A stretch of 64,000 nt of DNA, taken from NCBI GenBank assembly GCA_964196115.1, contig CAXMRQ010000181.1, positions 223 through 64,222 of the forward strand, written 5' to 3'. A program made the translations under genes and the position numbers. This document shows, piece by piece, positions 1 to 45,462 of the stretch (the first letter of the stretch is position 1; the number at the start of each line of letters is the position of its first letter). Source of the stretch: an uncultured Gammaproteobacteria bacterium. GTDB lineage: Bacteria; Pseudomonadota; Gammaproteobacteria; GCA-001735895. The notes under the pieces were generated by a model. It saw only the letters and a program-made list of their open reading frames with translations, was not told the DNA's origin and ran no database searches.

Positions 1-1
1 A

Positions 2-1123
2 CCCTATTACCTGATCAACAATATCGATGAAGCTGGCAGTTATTTGCGCGACCCCTCAGAGCATTACAGCAAGCAAAATATTGAGCTGATCCAGCAACGA
101 GTCGACAAAGTTGATTCGAATGCCAAGAAGGTAACGCTCGCCGATGGCAGCACGAGAGATTACGACAAGCTGTTACTGGCCACTGGGTCTAGACCGATAA
201 GTCCTCCGATTCCAGGGCTGGATTTACCGCAGGTGCATTCCTGCTGGACGCTGGAAGACGCACGCCACATTATTGAGCTGGCGCAACCAGGTGCCAATGT
301 CGTGTTAATCGGTGCCGGGTTTATTGGCTGTATCATTCTTGAGGCATTGGTGAAGCGCGGTATTAATTTATCGGTAGTGGAAACCGGAAATCGCATGGTG
401 CCGCGCATGCTTAACGAAAAAGCAGGCGGTCTGCTAGAAAAATGGTGTGTCAATAAGGGCATTGACGTGCATACCTCCTGTAGTGTCGAGTCGGTTACAG
501 CAGCTAATAAAGATCAGGTAGAAGTCAGTTTGAGCGATGGTAGTAAGTTGCCAGCGGCTTTGGTTATTACCGCAACTGGGGTGAAGCCGAATACAGAAAT
601 GCTCGAAGGAACTGATATCAAGCTTGAAGTCGGCGTATTGGTGAATAATTCGATGCAAACCAATAATAGTGATATCTATGCTGCGGGTGACGTGGCGCAG
701 GGTATGGATTTTTCTACCGGTAACTTTGAAGTTCAGGCAATACAACCGACCGCTACAGACCATGGTCGCGTTGCGGCATTGAATATGGCAGGCAAGGCAA
801 CCGAGAATCATGGCAGTCTGAATATGAACGTCCTCGATACCGTAGGATTAATATCCTGCTCGTTTGGCCTTTGGATGGGTGCTGATGGGGGTGAACAGGC
901 TGAGTTATATAATCCAGATGAGTTTCAGTATATCAATCTACAGTTCGACGGTGATTGTCTGGTCGGTGCGAGTACGGTCGGTAAGACCCAGCATGTCGGT
1001 GTTTTGCGCGGTTTGATCGAGTCCAGGGTTAATCTTGGCCCCTGGAAACAACGTTTGATGAGCGATCCGACTGCTATTATGGAAGCTTACGTGGCTTGTA
1101 CTCAGGAATTAGGTTACGTTTGA
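2..1123 (+). CDS. FAD/NAD(P)-dependent pyridine nucleotide-disulfide family oxidoreductase (5' end truncated by window edge)
   Basis: The reading frame is open from position 2. It carries an NAD-binding Rossmann motif (VVLIGAGFIGCIILEAL), and a second, C-terminal dinucleotide-binding motif (DIYAAGDVAQG) typical of rubredoxin/nitrite-reductase-like flavoprotein reductases. Confidence 0.7.
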   Translation, partial: PYYLINNIDEAGSYLRDPSEHYSKQNIELIQQRVDKVDSNAKKVTLADGSTRDYDKLLLATGSRPISPPIPGLDLPQVHSCWTLEDARHIIELAQPGANVVLIGAGFIGCIILEALVKRGINLSVVETGNRMVPRMLNEKAGGLLEKWCVNKGIDVHTSCSVESVTAANKDQVEVSLSDGSKLPAALVITATGVKPNTEMLEGTDIKLEVGVLVNNSMQTNNSDIYAAGDVAQGMDFSTGNFEVQAIQPTATDHGRVAALNMAGKATENHGSLNMNVLDTVGLISCSFGLWMGADGGEQAELYNPDEFQYINLQFDGDCLVGASTVGKTQHVGVLRGLIESRVNLGPWKQRLMSDPTAIMEAYVACTQELGYV

Positions 1124-1163
1124 CGGACAGTTCGTGAAATAGCGATTTGTTCGGGATTCTCAG

Positions 1164-1415
1164 ATGAAACTGTATATCGAGTTCTATGCCTCGTTAATGA
1201 AATACCTGCCGCCCGGCAAATCCAGGTTTCGTCGAGAAATCAGCGTAGAAGATTCGCCGATCTTGAATCGCCTCATCGAGCAATATCATATTTCCCCACA
1301 GGAGGCTCATCTTGTGCTGGTTAATGGAAGATTTGTTAATCCTGAAGATCGGGATCACAGAGTTTTGCAGCAAGGTGACGTTATTTCTATCTGGCCGCCG
1401 GTAGCAGGGGGTTAA
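1164..1415 (+). CDS. MoaD/ThiS-family ubiquitin-like sulfur carrier protein with C-terminal Gly-Gly
   Basis: An 83-aa protein ending ...VISIWPPVAGG*. Its size and GG tail, and its position directly upstream of an E1-like enzyme, fit a sulfur carrier. Confidence 0.7.
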   Translation: MKLYIEFYASLMKYLPPGKSRFRREISVEDSPILNRLIEQYHISPQEAHLVLVNGRFVNPEDRDHRVLQQGDVISIWPPVAGG

Positions 1416-1419
1416 GTCT

Positions 1420-1737
1420 ATGCCTGCCGGTGCAGGGATAATCGAATACGAAATGGGCTACGGGGCCGATGAATTCGGCAATGTTTTGCAAGGCACGTTC
1501 AGTGGAGAAAAATCTCCTTATCGCTACGAGACGCTTGCCAGGCATCACTGGCGTATGAGTCAGCTCGACAGCGAATTGAATATAGAAATTCAGGTTGAGG
1601 AAATGCCGCCCCGCAGGCTCGGTTTATTTGCATTACCGGTACTGCAGGTTAAGTTCTATCTGCATCAAACTACCCTTGATGATCAGACCGGGTTTTTCGA
1701 CCGGTTTCATAAATATTTTCATAAAGGAGGCGGTTAG
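1420..1737 (+). CDS. hypothetical protein (105 aa, ends GGG) between the sulfur carrier and the E1-like gene
   Basis: The ORF is tightly packed, starting 4 nt after the MoaD-like stop and ending exactly at the TTG start of the next gene. An AAGGAGG RBS lies inside its 3' end. I recognise no family. Confidence 0.4.
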   Translation: MPAGAGIIEYEMGYGADEFGNVLQGTFSGEKSPYRYETLARHHWRMSQLDSELNIEIQVEEMPPRRLGLFALPVLQVKFYLHQTTLDDQTGFFDRFHKYFHKGGG

Positions 1738-2478
1738 TTGGACGCCGAGCAAGAGGATCGCTATAGCCGTCAAATTCGATTAGCTCAGATAGGCGAACCC
1801 GGTCAGCAAAAAATTCTCGATTCGAGTGCGCTGATAGTCGGTATGGGTGGTCTCGGATCGCCTGCGGCAATGTATCTGGCAGCGGCAGGCATCGGCAAGC
1901 TGGTAATCACCGATTACGATATGGTCGAAGTTTCTAACTTGCAACGCCAGATCATTCATAATACCGCCAGAATTGGTGATAACAAGGTGGACTCGGCGAA
2001 GCAGAGTATCGAGGCGATCAACCCTGATTGTCAGGTAGAGACCATCAACTATCAGCTCGACGAAGAAGAATTAAAATCAGTCATCCAGCGTGTCGACATC
2101 GTGCTTGATTGCTGTGACAACTTTCCCACTCGTTTCGAAGTTAATCGATATTGCGTGGAAACCGAAACACCACTGGTTTCAGGCGCAGCGATCCGGCTCG
2201 AGGGCCAGATCATGAATTTCCAGCCGAAAGTTAATGGGCCGTGTTATCAATGTCTGTATACGCAAGTTTACGAAAATGCCGAGACCTGTGAAATGGAGGG
2301 TGTACTTGGCCCGGTAGTCGGCGTCATCGGCACCATGCAGGCGCTACAGACACTGTTGATTTTGACCGGTCAGGGGGAACCATTAATCGGTAAATTACTG
2401 CTACTGGATGCCGCCAGCATGGAGTGGCAGGGGGTAAAATTACCCAGGAATCCGGCTTGCCCGGTGTGTGGGGCGTAG
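1738..2478 (+). CDS. MoeB/ThiF/HesA-family E1-like adenylyltransferase (short form, no rhodanese domain)
   Basis: Carries RYSRQI..., the nucleotide-binding loop GMGGLGSPAAMYLAAAGIG and paired CxxC motifs (CYQC...CPVC). It uses a TTG start preceded by AAGGAGG 8-9 nt upstream. Confidence 0.8.
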   Translation: MDAEQEDRYSRQIRLAQIGEPGQQKILDSSALIVGMGGLGSPAAMYLAAAGIGKLVITDYDMVEVSNLQRQIIHNTARIGDNKVDSAKQSIEAINPDCQVETINYQLDEEELKSVIQRVDIVLDCCDNFPTRFEVNRYCVETETPLVSGAAIRLEGQIMNFQPKVNGPCYQCLYTQVYENAETCEMEGVLGPVVGVIGTMQALQTLLILTGQGEPLIGKLLLLDAASMEWQGVKLPRNPACPVCGA

Positions 2479-2518
2479 AGGCAGGGGTGTTCCATCATCC
2501 CAAGTCCGATAGTTTATT

Positions 2519-2575
2519 GGTCGAATGAATTCGACCCTACCTGGAAGTACCCTGTAGGGCCGAATTTATTCGGCC
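2519..2575. repeat. REP-like palindromic element (family gtagggYcgaat..attcgRccctac), copy 1
   Basis: Shows two hairpins: ggtcgaatgaattcgacc and gtagggccgaatttattcggcc. The same element recurs at 7914-7969 and 49744-49810. Confidence 0.7.
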
Positions 2576-2581
2576 TGCTAA

Positions 2582-3405
2582 CTAAATAAACCGCAGTGAA
2601 AAATCGATTGCTCGTAAGTGCTTGGTGAGGGCACCGATAGAGATAAAATCGACGCCGGTTTCGGCAATCTGTAGTAGGGTCTCGTCGGTAATATTACCGG
2701 AAGCGTCGAGTTGAATACGATTATTGTTCAATGCAACGGCTTGCTTCATATCCTCTATATCGAAATTATCCAGTAAAGCACGATCTACTTTGACGTCTAG
2801 CGCCTGCTGTAACTGATCCAGATCCTCGACTTCGACTTCCAGTAAACAATCAGGTCGTAACGCCCGACCACGTTCGACTGCTGCTCTAATGCTACCGCTC
2901 GCAGCAAGATGATTTTCCTTGATTAGATAAGCGTCAAAAGCCCGAGTCGATGATTCATGCCACCCCCGCAATGAACCGCATATTTCTGCGCGCGTCGAAG
3001 ATGCGGAATGGTCTTACGGGTATCGAGGATACGGCAGGCTGTCTGTTTAATTCGGTCGGCATAGAGGCAGGTGGTGGTCGCGGTGCCCGACAGGGTTTGC
3101 AGGAAATTGAGTGCGGTGCGTTCAGCGGTGAGCATCGCCCTCGCGCTGCCGGAAATCTCACACAGTATGCTATTGGCGACAACTCGATCACCATCTGTAG
3201 CATTCCATTTAATCTGAATAGAGCGGTCGCATTGTTTGAAGGCTTCGTTAAACCAGGCGGCACCGCCTAGCACGGCATCCTCGCGCACCAGCAATTGCAT
3301 ATGGAGTTGCGCGGATTCGCCAATCAGCATGGCGCCGAGATACTTTCCGCTCTGAGAGTGCACAACCGGCACGGCTTCGCCGATGTAGTCGCGCATTGCT
3401 TCCAT
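2582..3405 (-). pseudogene. nadC: nadC pseudogene fused in-frame to a duplicated 3' fragment of the ClC channel gene
   Basis: Two overlapping minus-strand ORFs (2923-3405 and 2582-2971) together are collinear with the intact nadC at 7976-8803. There is a frameshift near 2925-2970. The N-terminus MEAMRDYIGEAVPVVHSQSGKYLGAM is the C-terminal CBS-region tail of the ClC gene. Relative to copy 2, about 145 bp are deleted at a catggcgc microhomology. Confidence 0.75.
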
Positions 3406-3478
3406 TGCACTCCAAAGACTCGGCGTTTGGTCGAATATGAGACCGTGATTCCAAGCAGAGTGAAGAGTAGCAAATCGG

Positions 3479-4117
3479 CTAATCGTCCTGGCCTTCGCGG
3501 TGACGTGACATGAAACGGGCTAATTCAGATTCCGTCGGATACAGCCCTGTGAAATTTTCTACATAGGCTGGCATGCGTTTCAGGCGTTCCGATTTCGGCT
3601 CGTCCACCATCATCGATATATAACCCACCTGCGTGTAATACACGGTACGCGCACGCACATCAACCTGTTCAACACTGAACCCGAAACGCGCAAACATGGC
3701 ACGAATCGCATCAATTCTTTCCTCGTCGGTTAGTTCAAGAATTTGCTTTAATTTCGCGGAGTGATGCGCCCAGTTGCGAATCGCAAAGTCCATGCGTGCG
3801 TCAAACAGCTGTGGATCTATCCAGCAATCGAACAGGTTCAGCACAGCCTCGCTAATGGTTTCTGCATACAACTCGGTCTGCGCGATCAAATTACCGGTAT
3901 TGTGCGCCTTCCAGCGTTCGATCAATGCGTCGAGCAGCGTATTACGGTCGTCGAAATGCCAGTAAAAGCTGGTGCGCGACAGTTTCAACGCGGCGGCCAG
4001 GGACATTACCTTAACCGACTCGACGCCGGACTCGATCAACATCTTGTGCGCCGCATCAAGCCATAATTCTTCCGACCCTCGCCAGCCGCTCTTTTTAATT
4101 AGGTTTCCGTTTTGCAT
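3479..4117 (-). CDS. TetR/AcrR-family transcriptional regulator
   Basis: Has an N-terminal HTH (WLDAAHKMLIESGVESVKVMSLAAALKLSRTSFYWHF). It is transcribed divergently from the mttB-like gene and shares a palindromic operator-like site with it. Confidence 0.8.
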   Translation of the reverse strand: MQNGNLIKKSGWRGSEELWLDAAHKMLIESGVESVKVMSLAAALKLSRTSFYWHFDDRNTLLDALIERWKAHNTGNLIAQTELYAETISEAVLNLFDCWIDPQLFDARMDFAIRNWAHHSAKLKQILELTDEERIDAIRAMFARFGFSVEQVDVRARTVYYTQVGYISMMVDEPKSERLKRMPAYVENFTGLYPTESELARFMSRHREGQDD

Positions 4118-4167
4118 GGGCTAATAATCAAAGGCTTATTAATGTATAAACAGTAATGTCTATTATA

Positions 4168-4183
4168 TTGACATTAATGTCAA
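4168..4183. promoter_or_regulatory. perfect 16-bp palindrome TTGACATTAATGTCAA in the divergent TetR/MttB intergenic region (candidate TetR operator)
   Basis: The sequence read directly is its own reverse complement. It sits between divergent genes, and a half-site-like TAATGTC also occurs at 4154-4160. Confidence 0.5.
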
Positions 4184-4219
4184 GTTTGCTATTGTTCACG
4201 CTATTCTGAGCCGGATAAA

Positions 4220-5818
4220 GTGAAAGCGATCATGACGCAGCAAGGGTTATCCAACAACCGACAGTCTGGCAAACGACGCAGCAACAGCCGTGCCAAGCTT
4301 CGAACCAAGCGTCTGGGTGAATCGGCACAGAACCGTCATCTCCAGGTAGCCTATATCACCCGCAAAATTCCCACCTATGACTTGCTGGATGAAGAAAGTC
4401 TGGTGAAAATTGAACAGGCCACCGACACCATTCTTGCAGAGATCGGCATCGAGTTTCGCGACGATGCGGAGACTGTCGATCTATTCCGTGAAGCCGGGGG
4501 ACAAGTCACTAAGATTAGCGATATAGCCTCGAACATTAAATTTGAGCCGGGTATGATCGGTGAGATATTAAAAACCGCACCGCAACGATTTACCCAGCAT
4601 GCTCGCAACCCCGCAAGGTCGGTGCAGATCGGTGGCGACGCCATGGTGTTTGCTCCTGCTTATGGATCGCCATTTGTTATGGATGTGGATAAGGGTCGGC
4701 GTTATGGAACCCTGTCGGACTTTGAAAATTTCGTCAAACTCGCGCAGTCGAGCCCCTGGTTACACCATTCGGGGGGGACCATCTGCGAACCAACCGATAT
4801 TCCAGTCAACAAACGACATCTGGATATGGTGTATGCCCATATGCGCTACTCTGATCGTGCTTTCCTGGGTTCAATCACCTCGCCGGAACGCGCCGCCGAC
4901 AGTATCGAGATGTGCCGCATTCTGTTCGGTACAGATTTCGTTGCAGATAACTGTGTCATCATGGGTAACTTTAATTCCACCTCGCCACTGATCTGGGACG
5001 GCGTTTCCACCAGGGGTATCCGCAACTATGCCGAGGCCGGTCAGGGCTCGATCCTGTTGCCATTTCTGCTCGGGGGCGCGGTGTCGCCGGTTACGATACC
5101 CGGTGCAGTTGCACAAGGTATGGCTGAATCCCTGGTCGGATGCGCGCTAACCCAGCTAGTGCGTCCTGGCGCTCCGGCTATTCTGGCATCTTTCATTTCA
5201 TCGATTTCGTTACGCTCCGGCAGCCCGACTTTCGGTACCCCCGAACCGGCACTAGGTAGTCTGGTCATCGGACAACTGGCGCGACGCCTGAAACTACCAT
5301 TGCGTTGCGCGGGTAATTTTTCTACCTCAAAGCTACCCGATGCCCAGGCGATGACGCAAAGCGTTATGTCGATGATGTCCGCAGTACAATGCGGTGCGAA
5401 CTACATTCTGCATGCAGCCGGCTTCCTTGATGGCCTGTTGTCGATGTCATATGAAAAATTTATGCTCGATAGTGATCTTTGCGGCGCGCTGCACAGCTAT
5501 CTCAACGGCTTAGAGATCAATGACGACACACTGGGTATCGACGCCCTGCGCGAAGGCGGGCCGGGTGTGCACATGTTTGGTACCGCGCATACATTGGCGC
5601 ATTACGAGAATGCCTATTGGGACAGTGGTATCAATGACGACCAACCTTACGAAAGCTGGTCGGAACAGGGCAGCGAGGACTCCATGCAACGCGCCAACCG
5701 CAAATGGAAGAAAACCCTCGAAGACTACCAGGTGCCACCGATGGACGAGGCCACCAACGAGGCATTGAAAGACTTTATTGCGCGGCGTAAGGCGTCCATG
5801 GACGACGCCTGGTATTAA
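4220..5818 (+). CDS. MttB-superfamily (trimethylamine methyltransferase-like, non-pyrrolysine) methyltransferase
   Basis: A 532-aa protein with the overall MttB fold signature (TIM-barrel regions ...GGDAMVFAPAYGSPFVMD..., ...ILHAAGFLDGLLSMSYEKFMLDSDL...). It has no in-frame amber codon. The start may be GTG at 4220 or ATG at 4232. Confidence 0.75.
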   Translation: MKAIMTQQGLSNNRQSGKRRSNSRAKLRTKRLGESAQNRHLQVAYITRKIPTYDLLDEESLVKIEQATDTILAEIGIEFRDDAETVDLFREAGGQVTKISDIASNIKFEPGMIGEILKTAPQRFTQHARNPARSVQIGGDAMVFAPAYGSPFVMDVDKGRRYGTLSDFENFVKLAQSSPWLHHSGGTICEPTDIPVNKRHLDMVYAHMRYSDRAFLGSITSPERAADSIEMCRILFGTDFVADNCVIMGNFNSTSPLIWDGVSTRGIRNYAEAGQGSILLPFLLGGAVSPVTIPGAVAQGMAESLVGCALTQLVRPGAPAILASFISSISLRSGSPTFGTPEPALGSLVIGQLARRLKLPLRCAGNFSTSKLPDAQAMTQSVMSMMSAVQCGANYILHAAGFLDGLLSMSYEKFMLDSDLCGALHSYLNGLEINDDTLGIDALREGGPGVHMFGTAHTLAHYENAYWDSGINDDQPYESWSEQGSEDSMQRANRKWKKTLEDYQVPPMDEATNEALKDFIARRKASMDDAWY

Positions 5819-5867
5819 CAGAAACCTCCCTTAGATATATAAATCACCCGTCACGAGGTCGAAAAAA

Positions 5868-7904
5868 ATGACGAATGACCCACTGCTGCAGCCTTATCAG
5901 CTCAAACACCTGACGCTGAAAAATCGTATTATGACTACCAGTCATGAACCTGCCTACCCTGAGGATGGCATGCCGAAGGAGCGCTATCGGGCGTACCACG
6001 AGGAGCGTGCGAAGGCTGGCCTGGGTTTGACCATGACCGCCGGTTCAGCCGCCGTATCGAAGGACAGTCCCCCGGTTTTTAACAACATCCTTGCCTACAA
6101 GGACGAAGTGGTGCCGTGGATGCGTCAGGTGGTTGACAGCTGCCATGAGCACGGATGCGCGGTGATGATTCAGCTCACCCATCTAGGTCGTCGCACCGGC
6201 TGGAACAAGGGGGACTGGTTACCTGCTGTCTCGCCCTCGCACAACCGCGAAGCGGCGCACCGTGCGTTCCCGAAAAAACTCGAGGACTGGGATATTGTTC
6301 GCATCATCTCTGACTATGCCGATGCCGCAGAACGCATGCAGGCCGCCGGTCTGGACGGTATCGAACTGCAGGCCTATGGTCACCTGATGGATCAGTTCTG
6401 GTCGCCATTAACCAATACCCTGGATGGACCTTACGGTGGCCCGCTTGAAAACCGCCTGCGTTTTTCGATGGAGGTTCTGCAGGCGATTCGAAAACGTGTT
6501 GGTGAAGAATTCATCGTCGGTATTCGTTACACCGCCGACGAAGTCGCCGAGGGTGGTATTTCCGCCGACGAAGGTATCGAGATATCAAAACGTTTAAAAG
6601 ACACGGGCCTGGTCGATTTCCTCAACGTCATCCGCGGTCATATCGACACTGACCCCGGGCTTACCGATGTCATCCCGGTGCAAGGTATGCGAAGCGCGCC
6701 GTTCCTGGATTTTGCCGGCGAGGTGCGCAAGACCACCGGTATGCCCACTTTCTACGCGGCACGCATCCCTGATGTTGCTACCGCGCGCTACGCGGTCGGG
6801 GCGGGTCTTATCGACATGGTTGGTATGACACGTGCACATATGGCTGACCCGCATATCGTGCGAAAAATCGTTGAAGGCCGGGAGGGCGATATCCGCCCCT
6901 GTGTTGGTGCGACCTACTGTCTCGATCGTATTTATCAGGGCGGCGATGCGCTTTGTATGCACAATGCCGCCACAGGCCGCGAACTCACCATGCCGCATGA
7001 CATCCCAGTCGCAGATAATCGTAAAAAGGTGGTGATTGTCGGTGCCGGCCCGGCCGGGCTCGAAGCGGCGCGTATTGCCGCCGAACGTGGCCACTCTGTT
7101 ATTGTTTTCGAAGCCACCACTGACCCGGGTGGACAAATACGCCTGGCTATGCAAAGCGAGCGTCGGCGTGAAATGATCTCGATTATCGACTGGCGTATGT
7201 CGCAGTGCCACAAACGCGATGTAGAATTCCACTTTAACACTTTGGCTGAAGTCGAAGACATCCTCGCTAGTAATCCCGATGTCGTAATTATCGCCACTGG
7301 TGGACTGCCGCATACCGAGGTTCTGCAAGCCGGCAACGAGCTGGTTGTATCGAGTTGGGATATCATTTCTCGCAGTGTAAAACCGGGTCAGGACGTGCTG
7401 GTTTACGATGATGCTGGCGACCATGCCGGCCTGCAAGCCGCCGAAATAATCGCGGCAACCGGCGCCAGTGTTGAAATTATGACCCCGGATCGGAGCTTTG
7501 CGCCCGAGGTTATGGCGATGAATCTGGTCCCCTATATGCGTAGCATGCAGGATAAAAACGTGACCTTTACCGTCACCTATCGCCTAAAGCGCGTAGAAAA
7601 AGATGGCGATAGTCTGAACGCGATTATTGGCAGCGATTACAGCGACCTTATAAAACAACGCAGCTTCGACCAGATTATCGTCAATCACGGTACGATACCG
7701 ATGGACGAGCTTTATTTCGAACTGAAACCACAATCTTCCAACCTGGGTGCCGTGGACCAGGATGCACTAATCGCTGGTAAGCCGCAGTCGCTGAATACTA
7801 ATCCGCACGGCAATTTCCAGCTATTTCGCATCGGTGATGCCGTTTCTGCACGTAATACGCATGCAGCGATATACGATGCATTACGACTGATGAAGGATAT
7901 TTGA
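5868..7904 (+). CDS. trimethylamine dehydrogenase / DgcA / 2,4-dienoyl-CoA reductase-family flavoprotein
   Basis: The N-terminal Old Yellow Enzyme-like FMN domain carries a cysteine-rich stretch (RPCVGATYCLDRIYQGGDALC) matching the [4Fe-4S] motif of TMADH-type enzymes. It also has a Rossmann motif VVIVGAGPAGLEAA and a second, C-terminal dinucleotide motif. Confidence 0.75.
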   Translation: MTNDPLLQPYQLKHLTLKNRIMTTSHEPAYPEDGMPKERYRAYHEERAKAGLGLTMTAGSAAVSKDSPPVFNNILAYKDEVVPWMRQVVDSCHEHGCAVMIQLTHLGRRTGWNKGDWLPAVSPSHNREAAHRAFPKKLEDWDIVRIISDYADAAERMQAAGLDGIELQAYGHLMDQFWSPLTNTLDGPYGGPLENRLRFSMEVLQAIRKRVGEEFIVGIRYTADEVAEGGISADEGIEISKRLKDTGLVDFLNVIRGHIDTDPGLTDVIPVQGMRSAPFLDFAGEVRKTTGMPTFYAARIPDVATARYAVGAGLIDMVGMTRAHMADPHIVRKIVEGREGDIRPCVGATYCLDRIYQGGDALCMHNAATGRELTMPHDIPVADNRKKVVIVGAGPAGLEAARIAAERGHSVIVFEATTDPGGQIRLAMQSERRREMISIIDWRMSQCHKRDVEFHFNTLAEVEDILASNPDVVIIATGGLPHTEVLQAGNELVVSSWDIISRSVKPGQDVLVYDDAGDHAGLQAAEIIAATGASVEIMTPDRSFAPEVMAMNLVPYMRSMQDKNVTFTVTYRLKRVEKDGDSLNAIIGSDYSDLIKQRSFDQIIVNHGTIPMDELYFELKPQSSNLGAVDQDALIAGKPQSLNTNPHGNFQLFRIGDAVSARNTHAAIYDALRLMKDI

Positions 7905-7913
7905 GACGGTTTT

Positions 7914-7969
7914 GTAGGGTCGAATTCATTCGACCGGTTTAATGAAGTGCAGGCCGAAATTATTCGGCC
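7914..7969. repeat. REP-like palindromic element, copy 2 (terminator-like, downstream of nadC)
   Basis: Same family as 2519-2575, with hairpins ggtcgaattcattcgacc and ggccgaaattattcggcc. Confidence 0.7.
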
Positions 7970-7975
7970 TGCTAA

Positions 7976-8803
7976 CTAAGCGAAGCGCAAAGAAAAATCG
8001 ATTGCCCGCAGGTGTTTGGTGAGGGCGCCAATTGAAATAAAATCGACACCGGTTTCGGCAATCTGTAGTAGGGTTTCGCAGGTAATGTTGCCTGAGGCCT
8101 CTAGCTGGATGCGGTTGTGGTTTAATGCGACGGCCTGTTTCATCGCTTCGATGCTGAAATTGTCCAATAATGCCCGGTCAACCCTGGCCTCAATGGCCTG
8201 CTGTAACTGATCCAGATCCTCAACTTCGACTTCGAGCAGACAGTCGGGTCGTAACGCCCGGCCACGTTCGACTGCCGCTTTAATGCTACCGCTCGCTGCG
8301 AGATGATTTTCCTTGATCAGGTAAGCGTCAAAAAGTCCGATTCGATGATTCATGCCGCCCCCGCACTGAACCGCATATTTCTGCGCGCGTCGAAGATGTG
8401 GAATGGTCTTACGGGTATCCAGGATTCGACAGGCTGTGTGTTTAATGCGGTCGGCATAGAGACTGGTGGTGGTCGCGGTGCCCGACAGGGTTTGCAGAAA
8501 ATTGAGCGCGGTGCGTTCGGCGGTGAGCATCGCCCGCGCATTACCTGAAATTTCACACAGTATGCTATTGGCGACGACCCGATCACCATCTACAGCATTC
8601 CATTTAATCTGAATGGAATGGTCGCATTGTTTGAAGGCTTCGTTAAACCAGGCGGTACCGCATAGCACGACGTCCTCGCGCACCAGCAATTGCATATGGA
8701 GTTGCGCGGATTCGCCAATCAGCATGGCGCTGATATCGCCGCTACCAACGTCTTCCGCAAGCGCCAGTTTTATGTCTTCGGGTATGGCCTGTTGCAAGTC
8801 CAT
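7976..8803 (-). CDS. nadC: nicotinate-nucleotide pyrophosphorylase (quinolinate phosphoribosyltransferase)
   Basis: A 275-aa protein with the typical NadC motifs (TAERTALNFLQTLSG, ILDTRKTIPHLR, NHR) at full length. Confidence 0.9.
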   Translation of the reverse strand: MDLQQAIPEDIKLALAEDVGSGDISAMLIGESAQLHMQLLVREDVVLCGTAWFNEAFKQCDHSIQIKWNAVDGDRVVANSILCEISGNARAMLTAERTALNFLQTLSGTATTTSLYADRIKHTACRILDTRKTIPHLRRAQKYAVQCGGGMNHRIGLFDAYLIKENHLAASGSIKAAVERGRALRPDCLLEVEVEDLDQLQQAIEARVDRALLDNFSIEAMKQAVALNHNRIQLEASGNITCETLLQIAETGVDFISIGALTKHLRAIDFSLRFA

Positions 8804-8811
8804 CGGTTATT

Positions 8812-10548
8812 TCAGGCCTCGTGTTCTTCGCGTCGTAAGTCATGTAGAGAATCGAGATAACTACCGATTACGCTACTCTCCGGCATGGCGCCAAGATACT
8901 TTCCAGTTTGGGAGTGCACCACTGGCACGGCTTCGCCGATGTAGTCACGCATTGCTTCCATTGCACCCCACAGGCTGGTGGTTTCGTCGAATATCAGGCT
9001 TTGATGTAATGCCAGCGAATCGATACTGGCAGTCGGCCCGCAATCGCTCAACTGATCCTGATGCAGCAACCCCAGGTAGCGCTCGTCACTATCGACAATA
9101 ACCGCTGTCTGAAGTGAAATCGAGCGTAGCTGCTCGATTGCTGATTCTCCAGGCTGTTTGCTATGCAGCTTAGGAAGTAGCTGGGTTAAATGATCTACCA
9201 CGCGTTGATGCTGTAGATAGGCCCGATCACGGCCGTGCGATAAATCAACCCCGCGCTCGGCCAGTTGTCTATCGAATAGAGATCGCCCGTACCAGTGATG
9301 CGCAGTCAGATTGGAGAAGGCAACAGTCACCATCGCGGCAATAGTAATCTCGTAACTGTGAGTCAATTCAAAAATGATCAACAACGCTGTCATCGGCGCA
9401 CCGATAACCGGGCTGGCGACAGCGACCATGCCGCATATCGCATAAACGGATAGTTCGGAATAATGGCTAAGCAGCAGCTCGGGAATCGTAATCGCAAAAA
9501 GCGCACCGAACAGGACGCCGACCAGCAATGCCGGGAATATGACCCCGCCGGCAAATCCGAAGCCGATGCATAAAACCGTGACTAGCAATTTAGCAACCAG
9601 AATCGTCAACAGTTCTTCTGCACTGAATAATCCCGGGATGCTGGCCATGTTCATTAAATCTACCCCGGCACCGAGCACATCGGGAATTTGCAATGCCACC
9701 AGACCGAGCAGAAAACCGGCAATCATTGGCTTACAGGCTGCAGGGACTGAAATTTTATGTGCAATATCGCGCGATACTTTTAATAATTTCATGAACACGA
9801 CCGCGAGTACCCCGCAGGCGATTCCTTCCAGCACAAATAGCAAAAATTCAGACGCCTGGTACATGTGCTGGAATTCAAATAGAAATAACGGTGGGTGTTC
9901 GAACACGACATTCGCAACAACAAAGCCACAGGCTGAGGCGACTGTTACGGCAGTAAAAATTCGTAGCGAATAGTGGCGTAGAATCACTTCATGGGTGAAG
10001 ATTAATCCCGCAATCGGTGCATTAAACGCGGTCGAAATAGCCGCTGCAACACCGCAGGCAATTGCCGTACTACTGATATCGCGTACCCCGAGCCGCAGTC
10101 GGCTTGCAAGTTGGCCGACCAGCGAGCCTAAATAAACCAGCGGGCCATACTGGCCTACCGATGCGCCGCAACCCAGAGACAGGATAGAGGCTAATGTGGA
10201 AAAGGCACCCGATACCGGGCTGGGTAGTTTTTCACGCAATTGCACTGCGTAAATGGTATCGGGTGGCCCCAGTGGTCTTCCGCTTTTGACGCCGTAGCGC
10301 AATATCAGGCCGACGATTAATCCGCCGATGGTAGGAACCAGAATGGTAATCACTGTCAGAGTGCCGGGTTGCACACCGGTTCTACTTTCCGTACTGATGT
10401 AAAGCGCGCGATTGAGCCAGTGAACCAGGTCGACAAAACCGATAGTCGCAAATGAAGTGATTGTGCCGACCACCAAACCGATTAAAGCGATCACCAGCAT
10501 GCGATAAATGGTCGTATGGGCCTTAATTTTTTCCTGGTCTTGGCGCAT
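8812..10548 (-). CDS. ClC-family voltage-gated chloride channel / H+-Cl- antiporter with C-terminal CBS region
   Basis: Multi-pass membrane protein with ClC selectivity motifs (GCGASVGQYGP as a GREGP-like motif, GGVIFPALLVG as GxFxP). It starts with ATG at 10548. Confidence 0.8.
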   Translation of the reverse strand: MRQDQEKIKAHTTIYRMLVIALIGLVVGTITSFATIGFVDLVHWLNRALYISTESRTGVQPGTLTVITILVPTIGGLIVGLILRYGVKSGRPLGPPDTIYAVQLREKLPSPVSGAFSTLASILSLGCGASVGQYGPLVYLGSLVGQLASRLRLGVRDISSTAIACGVAAAISTAFNAPIAGLIFTHEVILRHYSLRIFTAVTVASACGFVVANVVFEHPPLFLFEFQHMYQASEFLLFVLEGIACGVLAVVFMKLLKVSRDIAHKISVPAACKPMIAGFLLGLVALQIPDVLGAGVDLMNMASIPGLFSAEELLTILVAKLLVTVLCIGFGFAGGVIFPALLVGVLFGALFAITIPELLLSHYSELSVYAICGMVAVASPVIGAPMTALLIIFELTHSYEITIAAMVTVAFSNLTAHHWYGRSLFDRQLAERGVDLSHGRDRAYLQHQRVVDHLTQLLPKLHSKQPGESAIEQLRSISLQTAVIVDSDERYLGLLHQDQLSDCGPTASIDSLALHQSLIFDETTSLWGAMEAMRDYIGEAVPVVHSQTGKYLGAMPESSVIGSYLDSLHDLRREEHEA

Positions 10549-25200: not shown

Positions 25201-25496
25201 CGGCCACAAATATGGCTGGTTGAGATTTTCATCACTATATTCTCGGAGCTACAAAGGTACAATGCGTTACCAATATTTTGGAAAGTTACCGACCGACACA
25301 TTTCGGTCCAAATTACTAATTATTAACAATTCAGTTTCGTTACTGCCCGCTGTGATAATTCATATGAGGCTGTCGCAGCCTGAAGCTACCCTCTAACAGA
25401 ACAATGACAGGTATTGCCGTGTCGCCCCTGTCTCGGGATAGTGCACGCCTACTAACTGCTGCAACATTACATTGGTGTACTATATTAGATGAGCAA

Positions 25497-26600
25497 ATGG
25501 CCATTTTTGAAAAAGAAATACTAAAGGTAATCTCGGACAAGGATATCGTCGACCTGTCGAAGGCTTCAATCAACCAAAATCTCTCTACTGTCGATTTTGA
25601 TCAGGATGCGAAATTCTTTTATATCACGATTGACCGAATACTATTTTCTAATCCAGTTAGCACGATCAAAACGGTGCTTGATGCGCATGGTTTTGTACCT
25701 AATCTAGAAAATATTTTATCCTGCCTGGACAGTCTTAACTTTTCCATATATGGCAAGAGCCCCGGAAAGGGCAATAAGAATTCGCCAGCTAAAGTCAGTG
25801 AATATTTCCCCTGCATCCGATTCGAATTACCGAAAAAAAATAATATTGGCGATACCCTTCGCAGCTTTTATGATGAGATTTCCAAATACGAATCGAAACT
25901 ATCTGACAAGAATTTACCCGCGTGGGCGCCGAACCCGGAACTTAAAAAGAACAAAGATCTGCGCGAGGAAATAAAGCAACTGAAGGCCGCCAACGAAGAG
26001 CTTTCAGATCAGGTTAGTGTGCTCACTCAACAATTAAACCGGGAGCAGAAATCACTTAGCAGGGCATCCCGGGCGCTGGATTCGCAACGCGTATTACCGG
26101 AAAACGCGAAAATGTGCCGAGTCGAGAAGGTCGACCTGAAGCGCCGAAAAATTAAAGTGAAGTGCCAGAAGGAAGTCATCGATATCCCGACCCATATGCT
26201 GGATCGAATTCCCAATTTTCAGGAGCGCTGCCTGATCATTCTGGAAGAAGGCCTGGATCTGCCGCTCGGCATTATCTTTTTCACCAGCGAGGAAATTGAT
26301 CGTCTGGAAAAGCGTACCGCGGAACTTTTATACGTCGAGAAAGACAGGTTTAAGGCTCGCGATTCTATGCGTAACGAATTTCAAATCAAAGCTGTGAATC
26401 CGATGGAGGCAGAAACCATAAAATCACTCAGCCGTGGCATGAAAGTGGTTATTTCTATCGTCGATGGTTACGTGGTTCATTTTTCCGTCTATGGCTCAAA
26501 AAATTCGGCGCAGTTTACCAGTCGCATACAGGAACAGCTGATTGTATATGACATTGCCAAAAATCAATTAGTTAACCTGGCTGAAGATAAAAAACAGTAA
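25497..26600 (+). CDS. hypothetical coiled-coil protein, first gene of island operon
   Basis: A central heptad-like segment (LREEIKQLKAANEELSDQVSVLTQQLNREQKSL) is present and I recognise no family. An alternative upstream start lies at 25404. The next gene begins 17 nt after this one ends. Confidence 0.5.
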   Translation: MAIFEKEILKVISDKDIVDLSKASINQNLSTVDFDQDAKFFYITIDRILFSNPVSTIKTVLDAHGFVPNLENILSCLDSLNFSIYGKSPGKGNKNSPAKVSEYFPCIRFELPKKNNIGDTLRSFYDEISKYESKLSDKNLPAWAPNPELKKNKDLREEIKQLKAANEELSDQVSVLTQQLNREQKSLSRASRALDSQRVLPENAKMCRVEKVDLKRRKIKVKCQKEVIDIPTHMLDRIPNFQERCLIILEEGLDLPLGIIFFTSEEIDRLEKRTAELLYVEKDRFKARDSMRNEFQIKAVNPMEAETIKSLSRGMKVVISIVDGYVVHFSVYGSKNSAQFTSRIQEQLIVYDIAKNQLVNLAEDKKQ

Positions 26601-26617
26601 AGCTTAGAGGCTCACCC

Positions 26618-27436
26618 ATGAATGGTTTAAAAGACAAGAAGTACCTCAGCGTTTCAAACCGACGATTTGATCCGATAACCGTGTTTTTCAGTGTCGCATT
26701 ACTCGCTGCTGTTCTGGTTTCGGCGGTCGGCATCGATACCGGTCTTGGAATAGGGCTTGGTTCGGGTAATACCATAATGTTCAACGATTTTCGTAGTTTT
26801 TTCTTTGTTGTCGGTGGAACCCTCGGTGTGCTGTTGTTCCAGTTCGATGTGGAAACATTCTTCCACACCATTGTGCTGGTAGTTCGCTCGTTTATTGCCA
26901 ACCCGGTTAAACATCTCAACCCGGTAATCAACGAGCTTGACGATATGATTATCAAGGGCGGAAGCATTCTTGATATGCGTGATGGCAGTGAAATTACCGG
27001 CGAATTGCTCAATGACATTATCCATATGCGCAAGGAAAAGCTTTTCTATGAAGAAATTGAAGACTTTGTTACTAACCGCGTCGCGTCGGTTTTCCTGTTG
27101 CGAAAAGTATCAGCCTCGTTGCTCAACAAGGGTTCAAAAGTGGCACCAGCACTCGGCTTGCTGGGTACCGTTATTGGACTAATCGAGGTGCTACAGTCAC
27201 TTGAGAACCCGACCCAAATCGGCCCGGCGATGTCGCTGGCTTTGATGACCACAGCATTTGGTTCGATACTCGGTTCGCTGGTATTTACGCCATTGGCCGG
27301 TCGACTGGAACATCATAATAATATTTATATTGAAACCCATAAGCTGCTGATGAATCGTGTCAGTGCGTTAATTCGCCGCGAAGAACGTCAACTCGATTCG
27401 ATGTCGATGAATACCAAGATGGGTGGAGCGGCGTGA
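26618..27436 (+). CDS. MotA/TolQ/ExbB-family proton-channel protein (short, no cytoplasmic tail extension)
   Basis: Shows conserved TM3/TM4 signatures (PALGLLGTVIGL ... GPAMSLALMTTAFGSILGSLVFTPLAG). The stop overlaps the next gene's start (ATGA). Confidence 0.8.
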   Translation: MNGLKDKKYLSVSNRRFDPITVFFSVALLAAVLVSAVGIDTGLGIGLGSGNTIMFNDFRSFFFVVGGTLGVLLFQFDVETFFHTIVLVVRSFIANPVKHLNPVINELDDMIIKGGSILDMRDGSEITGELLNDIIHMRKEKLFYEEIEDFVTNRVASVFLLRKVSASLLNKGSKVAPALGLLGTVIGLIEVLQSLENPTQIGPAMSLALMTTAFGSILGSLVFTPLAGRLEHHNNIYIETHKLLMNRVSALIRREERQLDSMSMNTKMGGAA

Positions 27437-28077
27437 GCCTCGAACAACTTTCTGCAGAATCCGACGAAGAGGGTCTTGATTCCTTTTACATAAGCTTTGG
27501 TGACTTAATGGTCATCCTATGTGTGTTTCTCGTGATGCTACTGACCATGAGTAAAATCGATATAGGCTCTTTCGAGAAAATTAAAAGCGTGATGACCGGC
27601 AGTACCGATAATACGCTGGTCGAGCTGTCGGAAACGCTCCGCGAAATTATCGAAACTGCACCGGGCATTCCTGGCGCGTCGGTTCAACTGGCTAAAGACG
27701 GCGTACGAGTGGATCTTGATACCGGCGTACTGTTTGCGCCGGGTAAGGCCGCGATCAAAGGCGAAGCACTGCATTCCATTGAGCCGCTTTTGAGAGAGAT
27801 TCTGAAGACTGAATATCTAATCGATATTGAAGGGCATACCGATGATGTGCCGTTTTATCGACTCACCGACGGTGAAGTCGAAACCAACTGGAGCCTGAGC
27901 GGCAAGCGCGCCAGTAGCGTCATATTGCATTTGCGAAATAGTGGCTTTTCAGCCAAACGGCTGCGCGCTGTGGGTTATGCGCACACGCGGGCGGTAGTCG
28001 ACATCAGAGGTAAGTCCGGCGTTGAGCTGGAAAATGCCAGAGCCCGAAATCGGCGAGTTTCGCTGCTAATACGATAA
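27433..28077 (+). CDS. MotB/OmpA-family protein (single TM with conserved Asp, peptidoglycan-binding C-terminus)
   Basis: The TM helix SFGDLMVILCVFLVM has an Asp at the MotB D32-equivalent position. The OmpA-like motif is IEGHTDDVPF...SGKRASSVILHL...NRRVSLLI. Confidence 0.8.
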   Translation: MSLEQLSAESDEEGLDSFYISFGDLMVILCVFLVMLLTMSKIDIGSFEKIKSVMTGSTDNTLVELSETLREIIETAPGIPGASVQLAKDGVRVDLDTGVLFAPGKAAIKGEALHSIEPLLREILKTEYLIDIEGHTDDVPFYRLTDGEVETNWSLSGKRASSVILHLRNSGFSAKRLRAVGYAHTRAVVDIRGKSGVELENARARNRRVSLLIR

Positions 28078-28096
28078 TAAGCGGTTAAGAATAAAA

Positions 28097-38792: not shown

Positions 38793-39657
38793 TAGGTATA
38801 AACAATTGCTCTCCCTTTACCTTGAATTCACCGATCAGGTGTTGCCCTTTATCTGAGGTGAGCCAGTTAATCAGGTTCTCGGCTGTGGCATAATTTACAT
38901 GGCTATGCTTTTTTGGGTTTACCGCGATAATGCCGTAGGGGTTAAACAATGGCGGATCGCCCTGGTATAAAAGAGCAAGATTGGACCTGGACAGATAAGC
39001 CAGCCAGGTACCACGGTCGGTCATCGTATAGGCGCCCATCTCATTGGTGATTTGAATGACCTTCCCCATACCCTGGCCCACCGACTTGTACCAGTCCCCT
39101 TGCGGGGAATAATTGACACTTTTCCATAAACTCAACTCCTTCTTGTGCGTGCCGGAGTCGTCCCCCCGTGAAACGAACGCGCTTTTTGTATCGCGAATTT
39201 TTTGCAGCACTTCGATAACCGAGTGACTGCTAGAAATCTTCGCAGGATCGTCGAGCGGGCCTACGAGGACAAAGTCGTTATACATAACGTCGAAGCGTTC
39301 GACGCCAAAACCACCGTCAATAAATGCCTGTTCGGCGTTTTTCGCGTGCACCAGGACGACATCGACATCGCCCTCGCGACCCAGGCGAAGCGCCTTGCCG
39401 GTGCCGACCGCGATAGTTTGAACTTCTATCCCGGTATCTTTCCTGAATTCGGGCAGTAAATAGTCGAGTAAACCTGAATTATCAGTACTGGTGGTAGTTG
39501 CCAGACGAAGCATAGACGTGGAATTACTACTTGCAATAGTAGGAATTGAGAGCACAAGACATATACACAGAAGCGCTCCGAGCCGAATAAAATTGAGCAT
39601 GACAAACACCGCAGAAGGGAATCTAAAAAAGGAACTCATTATATCAAGCTGGTGCAT
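38770..39657 (-). CDS. periplasmic oxyanion-binding protein (TupA-like tungstate/molybdate binding protein)
   Basis: Has a signal peptide and the TTTSTDNSGLLDYL anion-binding motif characteristic of TupA-type substrate-binding proteins. It is adjacent to Moco genes. Confidence 0.6.
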   Translation of the reverse strand: MHQLDIMSSFFRFPSAVFVMLNFIRLGALLCICLVLSIPTIASSNSTSMLRLATTTSTDNSGLLDYLLPEFRKDTGIEVQTIAVGTGKALRLGREGDVDVVLVHAKNAEQAFIDGGFGVERFDVMYNDFVLVGPLDDPAKISSSHSVIEVLQKIRDTKSAFVSRGDDSGTHKKELSLWKSVNYSPQGDWYKSVGQGMGKVIQITNEMGAYTMTDRGTWLAYLSRSNLALLYQGDPPLFNPYGIIAVNPKKHSHVNYATAENLINWLTSDKGQHLIGEFKVKGEQLFIPNARQSKQ

Positions 39658-39729
39658 GACATACCATGCTCTAGCGTGTAGAGTTTGCTGTCATAATTAA
39701 TCTTTAGAACCTGATCGAACGAGGGTGAC

Positions 39730-40248
39730 ATGAGCGAAACTAGAGAACTCATTGAGTTAAATATAGCAGTATTGACGGTGTCTGATTCGCGTGATGAATC
39801 AAACGATAAATCGGGTGCTTTACTGGTCAGATTGCTAAGTGAATCCGGCCACATGCTCGAAGAAAAAACAATCGTGCCGGATGACAAGTATCGAATTCGT
39901 GAAGTTTTGTCGCGATGGATTGCCGATGAGGCAGTTCAGGTTGTTTTAACCACAGGCGGCACTGGCGTAACCGGTCGAGACGGCACACCCGAAGCAATTA
40001 TTCCGCTGCTAGATAAGGTAATCGACGGTTTCGGCGAAATGTTTCGCAATCTGTCCTACAAAAATATCGGTGCTTCAACCTTACAGTCTAGAGCTGTCGC
40101 TGGCGTTGCAAACGGCACTTATGTTTTTTGTTTACCCGGCTCATCGGGAGCCTGCAAAGATGCCTGGACTCAATTGATTGATGCGCAACTGGATTTTCGC
40201 ACCCGGCCCTGTAATTTGGTGGAGTTGATGCCGCGGTTGCGGGAGTGA
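39730..40248 (+). CDS. moaB: molybdenum cofactor biosynthesis protein B (MoaB/MogA family)
   Basis: Shows MoCF_biosynth-domain motifs ([10 protein letters not shown]..., [14 protein letters not shown]). Confidence 0.8.
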
Positions 40249-40264
40249 TTCTTGTTCTCTAGTT

Positions 40265-40359
40265 TATACGGGGTTTCGCACACTAAGGCTTTCATCACTC
40301 CGTAGTTGCTAACGAGTGCGTGCGCGAGTGTCTTTTTCTCACCAGCAAGAAAAAGGCAC
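40265..40359. repeat. ~95-bp repeat (family X) containing a cuuuuucuc..agaaaaag hairpin. An inverted copy lies at 44490-44585.
   Basis: tatacggggtttcgcacactaaggc...gtgtctttttctcaccagcaagaaaaaggcac matches the reverse complement of 44490-44585 at roughly 85% identity. Confidence 0.65.
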
Positions 40360-41062: not shown

Positions 41063-41076
41063 CCCGGAGCACAGTA

Positions 41077-41307: not shown

Positions 41308-41342
41308 ACAATACACTAACCCAAAGAAATCAGGAGAGGAAG

Positions 41343-42476: not shown

Positions 42477-42490
42477 GGAGGTGCATTGAC

Positions 42491-43483: not shown

Positions 43484-43508
43484 TATCAAAGGGCTTGTGT
43501 ACAAGTCA

Positions 43509-45461: not shown

Positions 45462-45462
45462 T

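Follow-up and report, generated by a model that had tools for sequence, protein, structure and literature searches.

Results

The window analyzed here is a 64,000-nucleotide stretch of DNA from an uncultured gammaproteobacterium, in which a three-gene cassette lies between two copies of nadC and the 3′ tail of a ClC channel gene. The left neighbor of the upstream copy is moeB (1738–2478, forward strand; NF004281, 321 bits), which encodes a ThiF-family adenylyltransferase and is the last gene of an AOR / Mo-W cofactor cluster. It is followed by a spacer (2479–2512), a REP doublet (2513–2581; hairpins at 2519–2536 and 2558–2575), a pseudo-nadC (2582–3335, reverse strand) and a relic of the ClC 3′ tail from the CBS region (3336–3498, reverse strand). 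The cassette comes next, with genes for a TetR-family regulator (3479–4117, reverse strand; PF00440), a putative non-pyrrolysine methyltransferase of the MttB superfamily (4220–5818, forward strand; PF06253, 714 bits) and a flavoprotein (5868–7904, forward strand; PF00724 and PF07992). Downstream of it are a second REP doublet (7912–7975; hairpins at 7918–7935 and 7952–7969), the intact resident nadC (7976–8803, reverse strand) and a full-length ClC channel gene with its CBS tail (8812–10548, reverse strand; PF00654 and NF002505), which is 99.5% identical to that of the relative L065.

The hairpins are like REP/BIME palindromes in being paired and imperfect, with an 18-bp core (GGYCGAAT..ATTCGRCC), in lying in spacers between convergent genes, and in recurring both within the window and among relatives. 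Elsewhere in the window the family has 5–6 matches, compared to 0.02 expected by chance. In the cassette-bearing relatives, as in the window, a doublet organized in the same way separates the flavoprotein gene from nadC. The difference from the known elements is that the REPs here were not the recombination substrate, and the closest cassette-free relatives have none in the moeB/nadC spacer.

The direct repeats described in an earlier note on this DNA are real. Positions 2513–3456, 0.95 kb in length, align to 7912–9012, and each copy opens with the REP hairpins, as the note had it, and continues through nadC into the ClC 3′ tail (8883–9012 is the part of the ClC gene repeated upstream). The nadC copies are 86.7% identical over 742 aligned bases, with 79% identity in the 3′ 250 bp and 92% in the 5′ part; the ClC tails are 82% identical. 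A stretch of 58 bp is identical in both copies. The downstream nadC had been called intact and was found to be so (TIGR00078, 299 bits), beside the full ClC gene. In the alignment of the two copies, the upstream one lacks 161 bp, equal to downstream positions 8722–8882 or, equivalently, 8731–8891. These bases lie between two 9-bp GCATGGCGC repeats, at 8722–8730 and 8883–8891 in the resident, and one 9-mer is left upstream at 3327–3335. The missing bases are 24 ClC codons and the stop (75 bp), the 8-bp spacer and nadC codons 1–26 (78 bp), which add up to 161 and thus fuse ClC to nadC in frame. The in-frame fusion by a microhomology deletion holds, but the deletion is larger than the noted ~145 bp. 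The frameshift previously placed near 2925–2970 comes from the loss of one A at 2935/2936, where the downstream copy has base 8330.

The upstream nadC corresponds to codons 27–275 of a once-functional allele, here called B. Its TIGR00078 matches are split over two open reading frames by the 1-bp deletion, and each fragment scores under the model's cut-off. Without residues 1–26 it also lacks the N-terminal AL.EDvGsGDISA motif, whose conservation across 89 homologues is 95% or more. We rejected the upstream copy as a full NadC (quinolinate phosphoribosyltransferase), since the AL.EDxGxGD motif is gone and the window's copy is frameshifted. The homology of the ClC-tail relic is secure to 3456; beyond this an open ClC frame of weak similarity continues to ~3498. 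By tblastn the relic matches ClC residues 513–555 at 81%. Its translation keeps N.GLIFD, like distant relatives, while the resident has HQSLIFD. Compared to the population alleles, the relic nadC is 90–93% identical over most of its length and 85% in one 107-bp segment, and the relic ClC tail is 82–84% identical to those of L063–L066. The two parts of the relic nadC have dS values to L061 of 0.38 and 0.37. In the relic, nadC and the ClC tail are both well separated from the population alleles, with the greater distance in the tail; a single contiguous origin would fit this.

The same layout is repeated in an independent MAG contig (L023/L068; GCA_964195535.1) at 99.5% identity, with SNPs and indels of its own. 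The 161-bp deletion is common to the window and L023, but the 1-bp indels differ, at 2935 and 3380, and L023 does not have the frameshift at 2935. Between these two strains, the relic shows 8 differences in 875 bp versus 7 in 7100 bp of its neighbors (9-fold, p = 6e-5). Decay of the relic is ongoing, strain by strain, with differing frameshifts.

The TetR protein is 84–85% identical to the TetR of L024 and L029. The MttB-type protein, from an uninterrupted 532-aa open reading frame with no in-frame amber codon, covers PF06253 profile positions 3–499 of 500 and matches PDB 4yyc (E 2.6e-163); by these sequence features it is a non-pyrrolysine member of the MttB superfamily. The flavoprotein has FMN (OYE-type) and FAD/NAD(P)-binding domains, the architecture of TMADH and 2,4-dienoyl-CoA reductase. 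Its nearest solved structures are 6qkg (2-naphthoyl-CoA reductase, E 7e-63) and 1ps9 (2,4-dienoyl-CoA reductase, E 2.5e-56). TMADH proper was rejected as its identity, with a weaker match (E 4e-41) and only the domain architecture in common.

Pseudo-NadC, TetR, MttB and the flavoprotein are the only proteins encoded in 2479–7975, with no integrase or transposase among them. No replicon, attachment site or recombinase was found at the locus, nor any Rfam match or inverted repeats of at least 25 nt. A mobile element or genomic island (IS, transposon or integrative element) was rejected for lack of transposase, integrase, recombinase and inverted repeats. The reading of the three genes as a cassette was borne out, and they are accessory. 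L063 and L064, which are the closest relatives, do not have them, and their dS to L024, L029 and L062 is 0.49–0.72 (0.62–0.72 for mttB and 0.57–0.65 for the flavoprotein gene, to the cassette-bearing relatives), compared to 1.1–2.5 for core genes (rnfD/G/E, nth, DUF1841 and ClC). The absence and the dS values indicate that the acquired DNA is foreign, and the history of the cassette is younger than that of the flanking core genes.

The prediction that relatives would have moeB directly followed by nadC-ClC was confirmed in the closest cassette-free genomes, L063, L064 and L061. The intact nadC of L063 and L064 lies 38 bp from moeB, and the window retains, at 2479–2512, a spacer homologous to the 38-bp one of L063, L064 and L061, so that moeB / nadC-ClC can be taken as the ancestral arrangement. 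In the more distant L024, L029, L030 and L062, the cassette adjoins nadC and there is no repeat. The earlier note had the cassette acquired by, or excisable through, recombination between the repeats; these are probably a by-product of integration instead, and not substrates that were there before it. L067 has no cassette, and in it the body of the relic is joined to the resident N-terminus inside the 58-bp identical stretch. This is the structure expected of excision by recombination between the repeats, in line with the earlier idea that the cassette is still excisable, but L067 may equally well be an assembly chimera.

The differences between the copies are overwhelmingly synonymous and carry the mark of purifying selection. 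At codon positions 1/2/3 there are 15/11/73 of them for nadC and 5/2/16 for the ClC tail, an excess at third positions even over a model of neutral decay of one copy (binomial p = 2e-9 and 0.012, respectively). Omega between the copies is 0.077 for nadC and 0.087 for the ClC tail, compared to 0.08–0.16 for true orthologues. Selection on the truncated ClC tail in place is impossible, yet its omega is ~0.09. The copies are different alleles that diverged under constraint. In addition, dS between the copies is heterogeneous over three segments (2.1, 0.34 and 1.1; p = 3e-6). The upstream copy is a stranded older or foreign allele and not a derivative of the resident gene, and the term segmental duplication in the earlier note does not hold.

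The resident nadC is mosaic, its 3′ third being foreign and its 5′ two-thirds of population type. The foreign patch adjoining the cassette (7905–8340), delimited by divergence from L065 and the population alleles, consists of the REP doublet and the 3′ 250–350 bp of nadC, and is 82.5–83.7% identical to the population alleles. Positions 7983–8232 hold 44 of 65 mismatches to L065 (17.6%), versus 0.5% over the next 2.7 kb, and the pattern of informative sites changes at ~8228 (Fisher p = 4e-8). The drop in divergence from L065, from 17.5% to 0.5% at ~8233–8340, points to a homologous crossover there, which would anchor one end of the acquired DNA in nadC. Homologous replacement of patches does occur at this locus, since 8665–9349 resembles L065 in the window but L063 in L023.

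The other end of the acquired DNA is different. At the junction where the ClC-tail relic meets the tetR end (3457–3502), the last sense codon and stop of tetR are taken away and the last 6 codons are supplied by the junction, so that TetR ends in ...SRHREGQDD* instead of the ...SRHL* of the cassette-bearing relatives. By its sequence, this join looks clearly non-homologous.

Discussion

The results above show the anatomy of the locus, that the copies are of foreign origin, what the ancestral gene order was and that decay continues. As the probable explanation we favor that foreign DNA entered by one homologous crossover and one illegitimate join. This would have stranded an older nadC/ClC-tail allele that is now decaying in each strain. 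The start state was moeB / nadC-ClC. A segment of a related genome, in which the cassette already adjoined nadC, would have arrived, starting at the final tetR codons, spanning mttB, the flavoprotein gene and the REP doublet, and reaching nadC and probably ClC as well. One end would have gone in by homologous recombination within nadC-ClC, while at the other an illegitimate join would have been made within the 3′ part of the ClC gene. The foreign segment would then provide the working nadC/ClC end, making the older nadC allele and ~130–170 bp of ClC tail redundant between moeB and tetR. The relic would have dropped its 161 bp by slippage between the two 9-bp repeats. Later homologous exchange with the population would have produced the present mosaic, which needs at least two events and three allelic lineages.

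The order of these events and the one-ended, HFIR-like mechanism are our inference. Neither a genome with an intact relic-type (B) nadC nor a donor with the foreign 3′ patch of the resident was found, and the donor and recipient are thus known by inference only. Also, dS to L063 is 1.29 for the moeB cluster of the window but ~0.37 for the relic nadC, which implies a further recombination boundary between moeB and the relic and a history more complex than one clean event.

Another explanation, which we find unlikely, is Campbell-type integration, in which a 5.4-kb circle (tetR-mttB-flavoprotein-REP-nadC′-ClC tail′) recombined once with the resident nadC to give two reciprocal chimeric repeats, the reverse reaction excising it. 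Direct repeats of a homologous segment around an insert are the expected product of a single crossover, and L067 is built as the recipient, or the excised state, would be. The population alleles are relic-like in the 3′ third and resident-like in the 5′ part, with the switch at ~8228. In experiments, circles that integrate by a single crossover are a commoner source of duplications beside integrated DNA than true HFIR is, which counts against the HFIR-like reading; of 60 events in E. coli conjugation assays, 56 were of the single-crossover kind, with duplications of 109–950 bp (PMC3240628). However, the allele pattern led us to reject the copies as reciprocal chimeras formed from a single donor allele and a single recipient allele. 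The putative recipient segments are unequally distant from L061 (pS 0.30 for the relic 3′ third vs 0.11 for the resident 5′ part, p = 0.003), and the relic is evenly diverged from L061, as expected of one contiguous origin and not of a chimera. The relic ClC tail is also less similar to that of L024 than the resident tail is (69.6% vs 75.4%), although the cassette itself is closer, and the 161-bp deletion would still be needed separately.

It is improbable that the locus is an ancient composite, with two nadC copies long kept by selection and the cassette-free moeB/nadC relatives as excision products. This would account for the low omega of nadC and for population alleles that resemble recombinants of a relic-type 3′ and a resident-type 5′ part. 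It would not account for an omega of 0.09 in the ClC-tail fragment, which could not be a functional gene, or for the lack of a REP doublet in the cassette-free relatives. Moreover, in the respective matching parts the population alleles are 9% from the relic and just 1–2% from the resident, and the relic decays independently in two nearly identical strains.

We regard as highly improbable the framing of the earlier note, in which nadC and the ClC tail were duplicated within the genome, in tandem or as a segment, with one copy decaying neutrally and the cassette inserted between. The repeats are direct and in the same orientation, and the ClC-tail/tetR junction could be a tandem-duplication join, but relaxed constraint is not evident at an omega of 0.08–0.09, and the pattern of substitutions already contradicts this framing. 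A dS of up to 2.1 in the 3′ third exceeds that to different species, the relic has outgroup residues absent from the resident, and the cassette-bearing relatives have no repeats. Least probable of all is an assembly artifact, by repeat expansion or chimeric joining of two strains, and the arrangement is not one. The relatives come from mixed populations as MAGs, and the copies share a stretch of 58 identical bases, but copies just 87% identical cannot be collapsed, and two independent assemblies agree over the 10.5-kb layout, each with strain-specific SNPs and indels and both with the TetR tail made by the junction.

The favored one-ended integration resembles HFIR, or insertion-deletion at the border of homologous recombination, as described in Acinetobacter, Streptococcus pneumoniae and Pseudomonas stutzeri (cited in PMC5361080 and PMC3240628), in having homology at one end, a single homologous crossover, a join at the other end that looks illegitimate, and neither integrase nor transposase. 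Classical HFIR, however, is experimental and usually deletes recipient DNA by the anchor, whereas this locus is natural and multi-step, and ~0.95 kb of the earlier allele survives as a direct repeat. Campbell-type insertion-duplication shares the insert between direct repeats and possible excision by a reverse crossover, which L067 would match, but the alleles here do not fit two reciprocal chimeras and the locus has no replicon, attachment site or recombinase. The T6SS effector-immunity and Rhs/CDI orphan modules (PMC5361080) are similar in that a newcomer displaces the resident and the old 3′ part stays downstream as a vestigial orphan homologous to the new copy. Here, in contrast, housekeeping nadC and a ClC tail are displaced, the cargo is a catabolic cassette, and there is no sign of repeated rounds of displacement or of a selective value of the orphan. 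The locus in this marine bacterium bears a clear if ordinary mark of horizontal gene transfer, left by a known kind of event.

Repeat structure and allele comparison

Segments 2513-3456 and 7912-9012 form a direct repeat, as seen with a repeat finder and a MAFFT alignment. The genes around it were assigned with NCBIfam and Pfam. On the left, moeB (1738-2478, plus strand) is followed by a 34-bp spacer, a REP doublet and a pseudo-nadC (2582-3335, minus strand), which runs into the tail of a chloride-channel gene, ClC (3336 to about 3498, minus strand). We call this decayed copy the relic. The cassette consists of tetR (3479-4117, minus strand), an mttB-like gene (4220-5818, plus strand) and a flavoprotein gene with FMN (OYE-type) and FAD/NAD(P)-binding parts (5868-7904, plus strand). 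A second REP doublet separates the flavoprotein gene from the resident nadC (7976-8803, minus strand), beyond which lies the full ClC gene (8812-10548, minus strand).

The upstream copy lacks 161 bp, equivalent to 8722-8882 downstream and bounded by two 9-bp GCATGGCGC repeats. This interval holds 24 ClC codons and the stop, an 8-bp spacer and nadC codons 1-26 and, therefore, its loss joins the ClC tail in frame to nadC codon 27. The N-terminal motif AL.EDvGsGDISA, conserved at 95% or more across 89 homologues, is absent from the relic nadC. A single A is also missing at 2935/2936 relative to the downstream copy. The perfect runs common to both copies are 58 (3278-3335 and 8673-8730), 36, 33, 32, 26 and 26 bp long.

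Substitutions between the copies at codon positions 1, 2 and 3 numbered 15, 11 and 73 in nadC and 5, 2 and 16 in the ClC tail. Nei-Gojobori omega was 0.077 for nadC (246 codons) and 0.087 for the ClC tail (38 codons), compared to 0.08-0.16 for true orthologue pairs. Since no purifying selection is possible on a truncated ClC tail at its present site, this divergence arose in working genes of different genomes. Divergence was also strongly mosaic (heterogeneity p = 3e-6), with dS of 2.1 in the 3' third of nadC, 0.34 in its 5' part and 1.1 in the ClC tail. The relic retains N.GLIFD as in distant relatives, and the resident copy reads HQSLIFD. The substitution pattern points to the upstream copy being a different allele from the resident, not a duplicate beside its original. 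An earlier note had described two repeats with a deletion of about 145 bp in the upstream one and had read them as a segmental duplication. The description holds except for the deletion size, but the low omega, found even in the truncated tail, and the mosaic dS contradict that reading.

An independent assembly and ongoing decay

The composite arrangement is not an artefact, as a second MAG contig, L023 (full read L068; GCA_964195535.1), shows the same layout with 99.5% identity over 1-10518. It was the sole match in an exact look-up of the TetR sequence, and it shares both the deletion of 161 bp and the TetR tail derived from the junction. L023 is without the frameshift at 2935 and carries a 1-bp deletion of its own, at window position 3380. 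Between the two contigs the relic differs ninefold more than its neighbours (p = 6e-5), and neither of the two substitutions in its nadC part is synonymous, which indicates that the relic is now in neutral decay.

Elsewhere the contigs are 99.9% identical, and 36 of their 51 differences cluster in 8665-9349, the nadC 5' end and ClC 3' end. This segment is like that of relative L065 in the window and like that of L063 in L023, the mark of a recent exchange of alleles through homologous recombination. Gene conversion from one copy to the other was rejected because the SNPs separating the window and L023 show no systematic match to the other copy.

Relatives and the origin of the cassette

Four arrangements were found at the nadC 3' end among the window and its relatives. 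Contigs L025-L028 have ClC-nadC followed by aminotransferase-EamA-NaPi, without the cassette (A). In L024, L029, L030 and L062, ClC-nadC is followed by flavoprotein-mttB-tetR and then the aminotransferase, so that the cassette occurs without a repeat (B). L063, L064 and L061 (the last over 17 visible bases) have ClC-nadC, a 38-bp spacer and moeB, again without the cassette (C). The composite with relic, cassette and resident nadC was seen in the window and L023 (D). The nadC 3' flank stands out as a hotspot of recombination, having at least four different neighbours among related genomes.

The arrangement-C contigs are 95% identical to the resident nadC-ClC, and their spacer is retained in the window at 2479-2512, directly left of the relic; therefore, the relic sits at the ancestral site adjoining moeB. 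On one 3.8-kb contig (L063:1-3791, against window 1219-10134), dS was 1.29 for moeB, saturated for orf105 and 0.13 for ClC, which places a further recombination boundary between moeB and nadC.

The cassette genes showed dS of 0.49-0.72 to the arrangement-B relatives, far under the 1.1-2.5 of rnfD/G/E, nth, DUF1841 and ClC and, therefore, the cassette moved between lineages after their split. GC content is mildly different (0.54-0.58 in the cassette and 0.48-0.53 in the flanks). Two points of the earlier note are supported: relatives exist in which moeB adjoins nadC-ClC, and the three genes behave as a cassette.

The resident nadC is itself a mosaic gene. Contigs L065 and L066 match the window at 99.5% identity between about 8480 and 11212 and diverge by 17.6% at 7983-8232, the cassette-side end of the gene. 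There, the intact population alleles (L061, L063-L066; proteins P0121, P0122, P0125, P0126) share 97-100% identity among themselves and are 90-91% identical to the relic, compared to only 82.5-83.7% to the resident. The informative-site pattern changes at about 8228 (Fisher p = 4e-8). The 3' 250-350 bp of the resident nadC probably arrived as one piece of DNA along with the cassette and its REP doublet. Among 127 NadC homologues, no donor of the resident C-terminal third was found (best match 77/85 residues), and none was closer to the relic than 91.5%. An exact look-up of the resident NadC gave no match, and scanning GTDB genomes with it gave relatives of 55% identity at most. The relic diverges evenly from L061 (dS 0.38 and 0.37 in two nadC parts); compared with the population alleles, it shows 90-93% identity across most of nadC, and in the ClC tail 82-84% to L063-L066. 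These values fit one contiguous piece from a third lineage.

Probable mode of integration

TetR ends in ...SRHREGQDD* in the window and in ...SRHL* in the arrangement-B relatives. The breakpoint on the tetR side lies at about 3499-3502, and the relic ClC reading frame is open back to 3498. The join between ClC tail and tetR appears illegitimate.

The best fit is homology-facilitated illegitimate recombination (HFIR) or a close variant. Incoming foreign DNA, tetR-mttB-flavoprotein-REP-nadC, would have recombined homologously at one end within nadC-ClC and joined illegitimately at the other in the ClC 3' region. This would have stranded the earlier nadC and ClC tail, which would later have undergone the microhomology deletion and then strain-specific frameshifts. 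Since neither an intact relic-type allele nor a donor-type allele was found, we infer the event order and donors. The main rival, integration of a circle through a single (Campbell-type) crossover, is a poorer fit to the allele pattern; in experiments, it is the commoner source of these duplications (PMC3240628). The REP elements were rejected as the recombination substrate, the doublets being part of the nadC 3' flank in cassette-bearing relatives and absent from the closest cassette-free ones. A mobile element was also rejected, as the region has no recombinase, integrase or transposase gene, no terminal inverted repeats and no structured RNA (Rfam). A scan for promoters and terminators gave background level only. 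Homologous patch replacement also acts at this locus, as seen at 8665-9349 and in the moeB and ClC dS values on L063.

Possible excision

Contig L067 (GCA_964196495.1) reads DUF1841-ClC-nadC-moeB-...-AOR without the cassette and differs from the window by 4 SNPs. In its only nadC (L067:2280-3106), the resident N-terminus passes within the 58-bp run into the relic body, frameshift included, and the chimeric ORF is 161 aa long. Recombination between the repeats is expected to yield such a product, which would leave the cell without an intact nadC. A shared stretch of 58 bp is able to mislead a k=55 assembler. L067 is either a real excision variant without a functional nadC or an assembly chimera formed through this stretch. 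The arrangement-C alleles of the population did not arise by excision from the composite, since they differ from the relic by 9%.

We consider it improbable that, through the repeats, the cassette acts as a mobile unit that is reversible and needs no recombinase, with L067 a true excision product and a 5.4-kb circle that re-integrates at nadC. If so, the circle would carry tetR-mttB-flavoprotein and a nadC/ClC-tail "homing arm" and could re-integrate by homology in any related genome. This would explain why the cassette is always beside nadC in lineages with far more diverged core genes.

Other features of the region

A 33.7-kb block of core genes (2479-36224; flanks 1-2478 and 36225-39657), including nadC, ClC, nth, rnfABCDGE, metG, apbC and dcd, separates moeB from mobB. 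At least 10 metagenomic relatives have mobB-mobA and a tupABC-like ABC transporter directly after moeB and, therefore, the AOR/tungsten-molybdenum cofactor cluster was split in the window lineage. Inversion was rejected as the cause: both flanks keep their orientation relative to the relatives, which makes the DNA between them an intercalated block. A MITE-like palindrome some 250 bp long lies at 35972-36224, with terminal inverted repeats GTCGGACTTAG/CTAAGTCCGAC and three TGCGTCGCCTAAAGCGCCTACTGTTGG copies. One of its arms also forms the moeB-nadC spacer of cassette-free relatives, and a copy adjoins nadC in L065 and L066.

A possible Zorya-like defence locus (25404-32419) encodes an unknown 398-aa protein, a 272-aa protein like MotA/ExbB, a ZorB-like MotB/OmpA protein (PADLOC ZorB, E 5e-14) and a helicase of 1440 aa with matches to the PDC-S37 and Mokosh MkoA/MkoC models. 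Another variable insertion, 40250-44514, is missing from relatives L038 and L040, whose collinearity with the window holds on both sides of it (36244-40249 and 44514-49725).

Discussion

The locus is a fresh instance of an already known event type and leaves the current understanding of gene transfer mechanisms unchanged. Its closest known counterparts are HFIR, or "insertion-deletion at the border" of homologous recombination, insertion-duplication of the Campbell type, and the orphan modules that displacement leaves behind in T6SS and Rhs arrays (PMC5361080). MttB is of the non-Pyl type and resembles PDB 4yyc, and the flavoprotein has a dienoyl-CoA-reductase/TMADH architecture. From family membership alone, the cassette presumably serves demethylation of a methylated amine. 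A literature search on this function gave only corrinoid-dependent MttB relatives of anaerobes, with nothing on the tetR-mttB-flavoprotein trio.

For annotation, kilobase "segmental duplications" beside accessory genes may be alleles stranded from another lineage, and codon-position statistics can distinguish the two using one genome. The locus is a well-resolved natural case of a catabolic accessory cassette moving among related marine bacteria via core-gene flank homology alone, and it shows a housekeeping gene displaced by such transfer, with a dated relic left behind.
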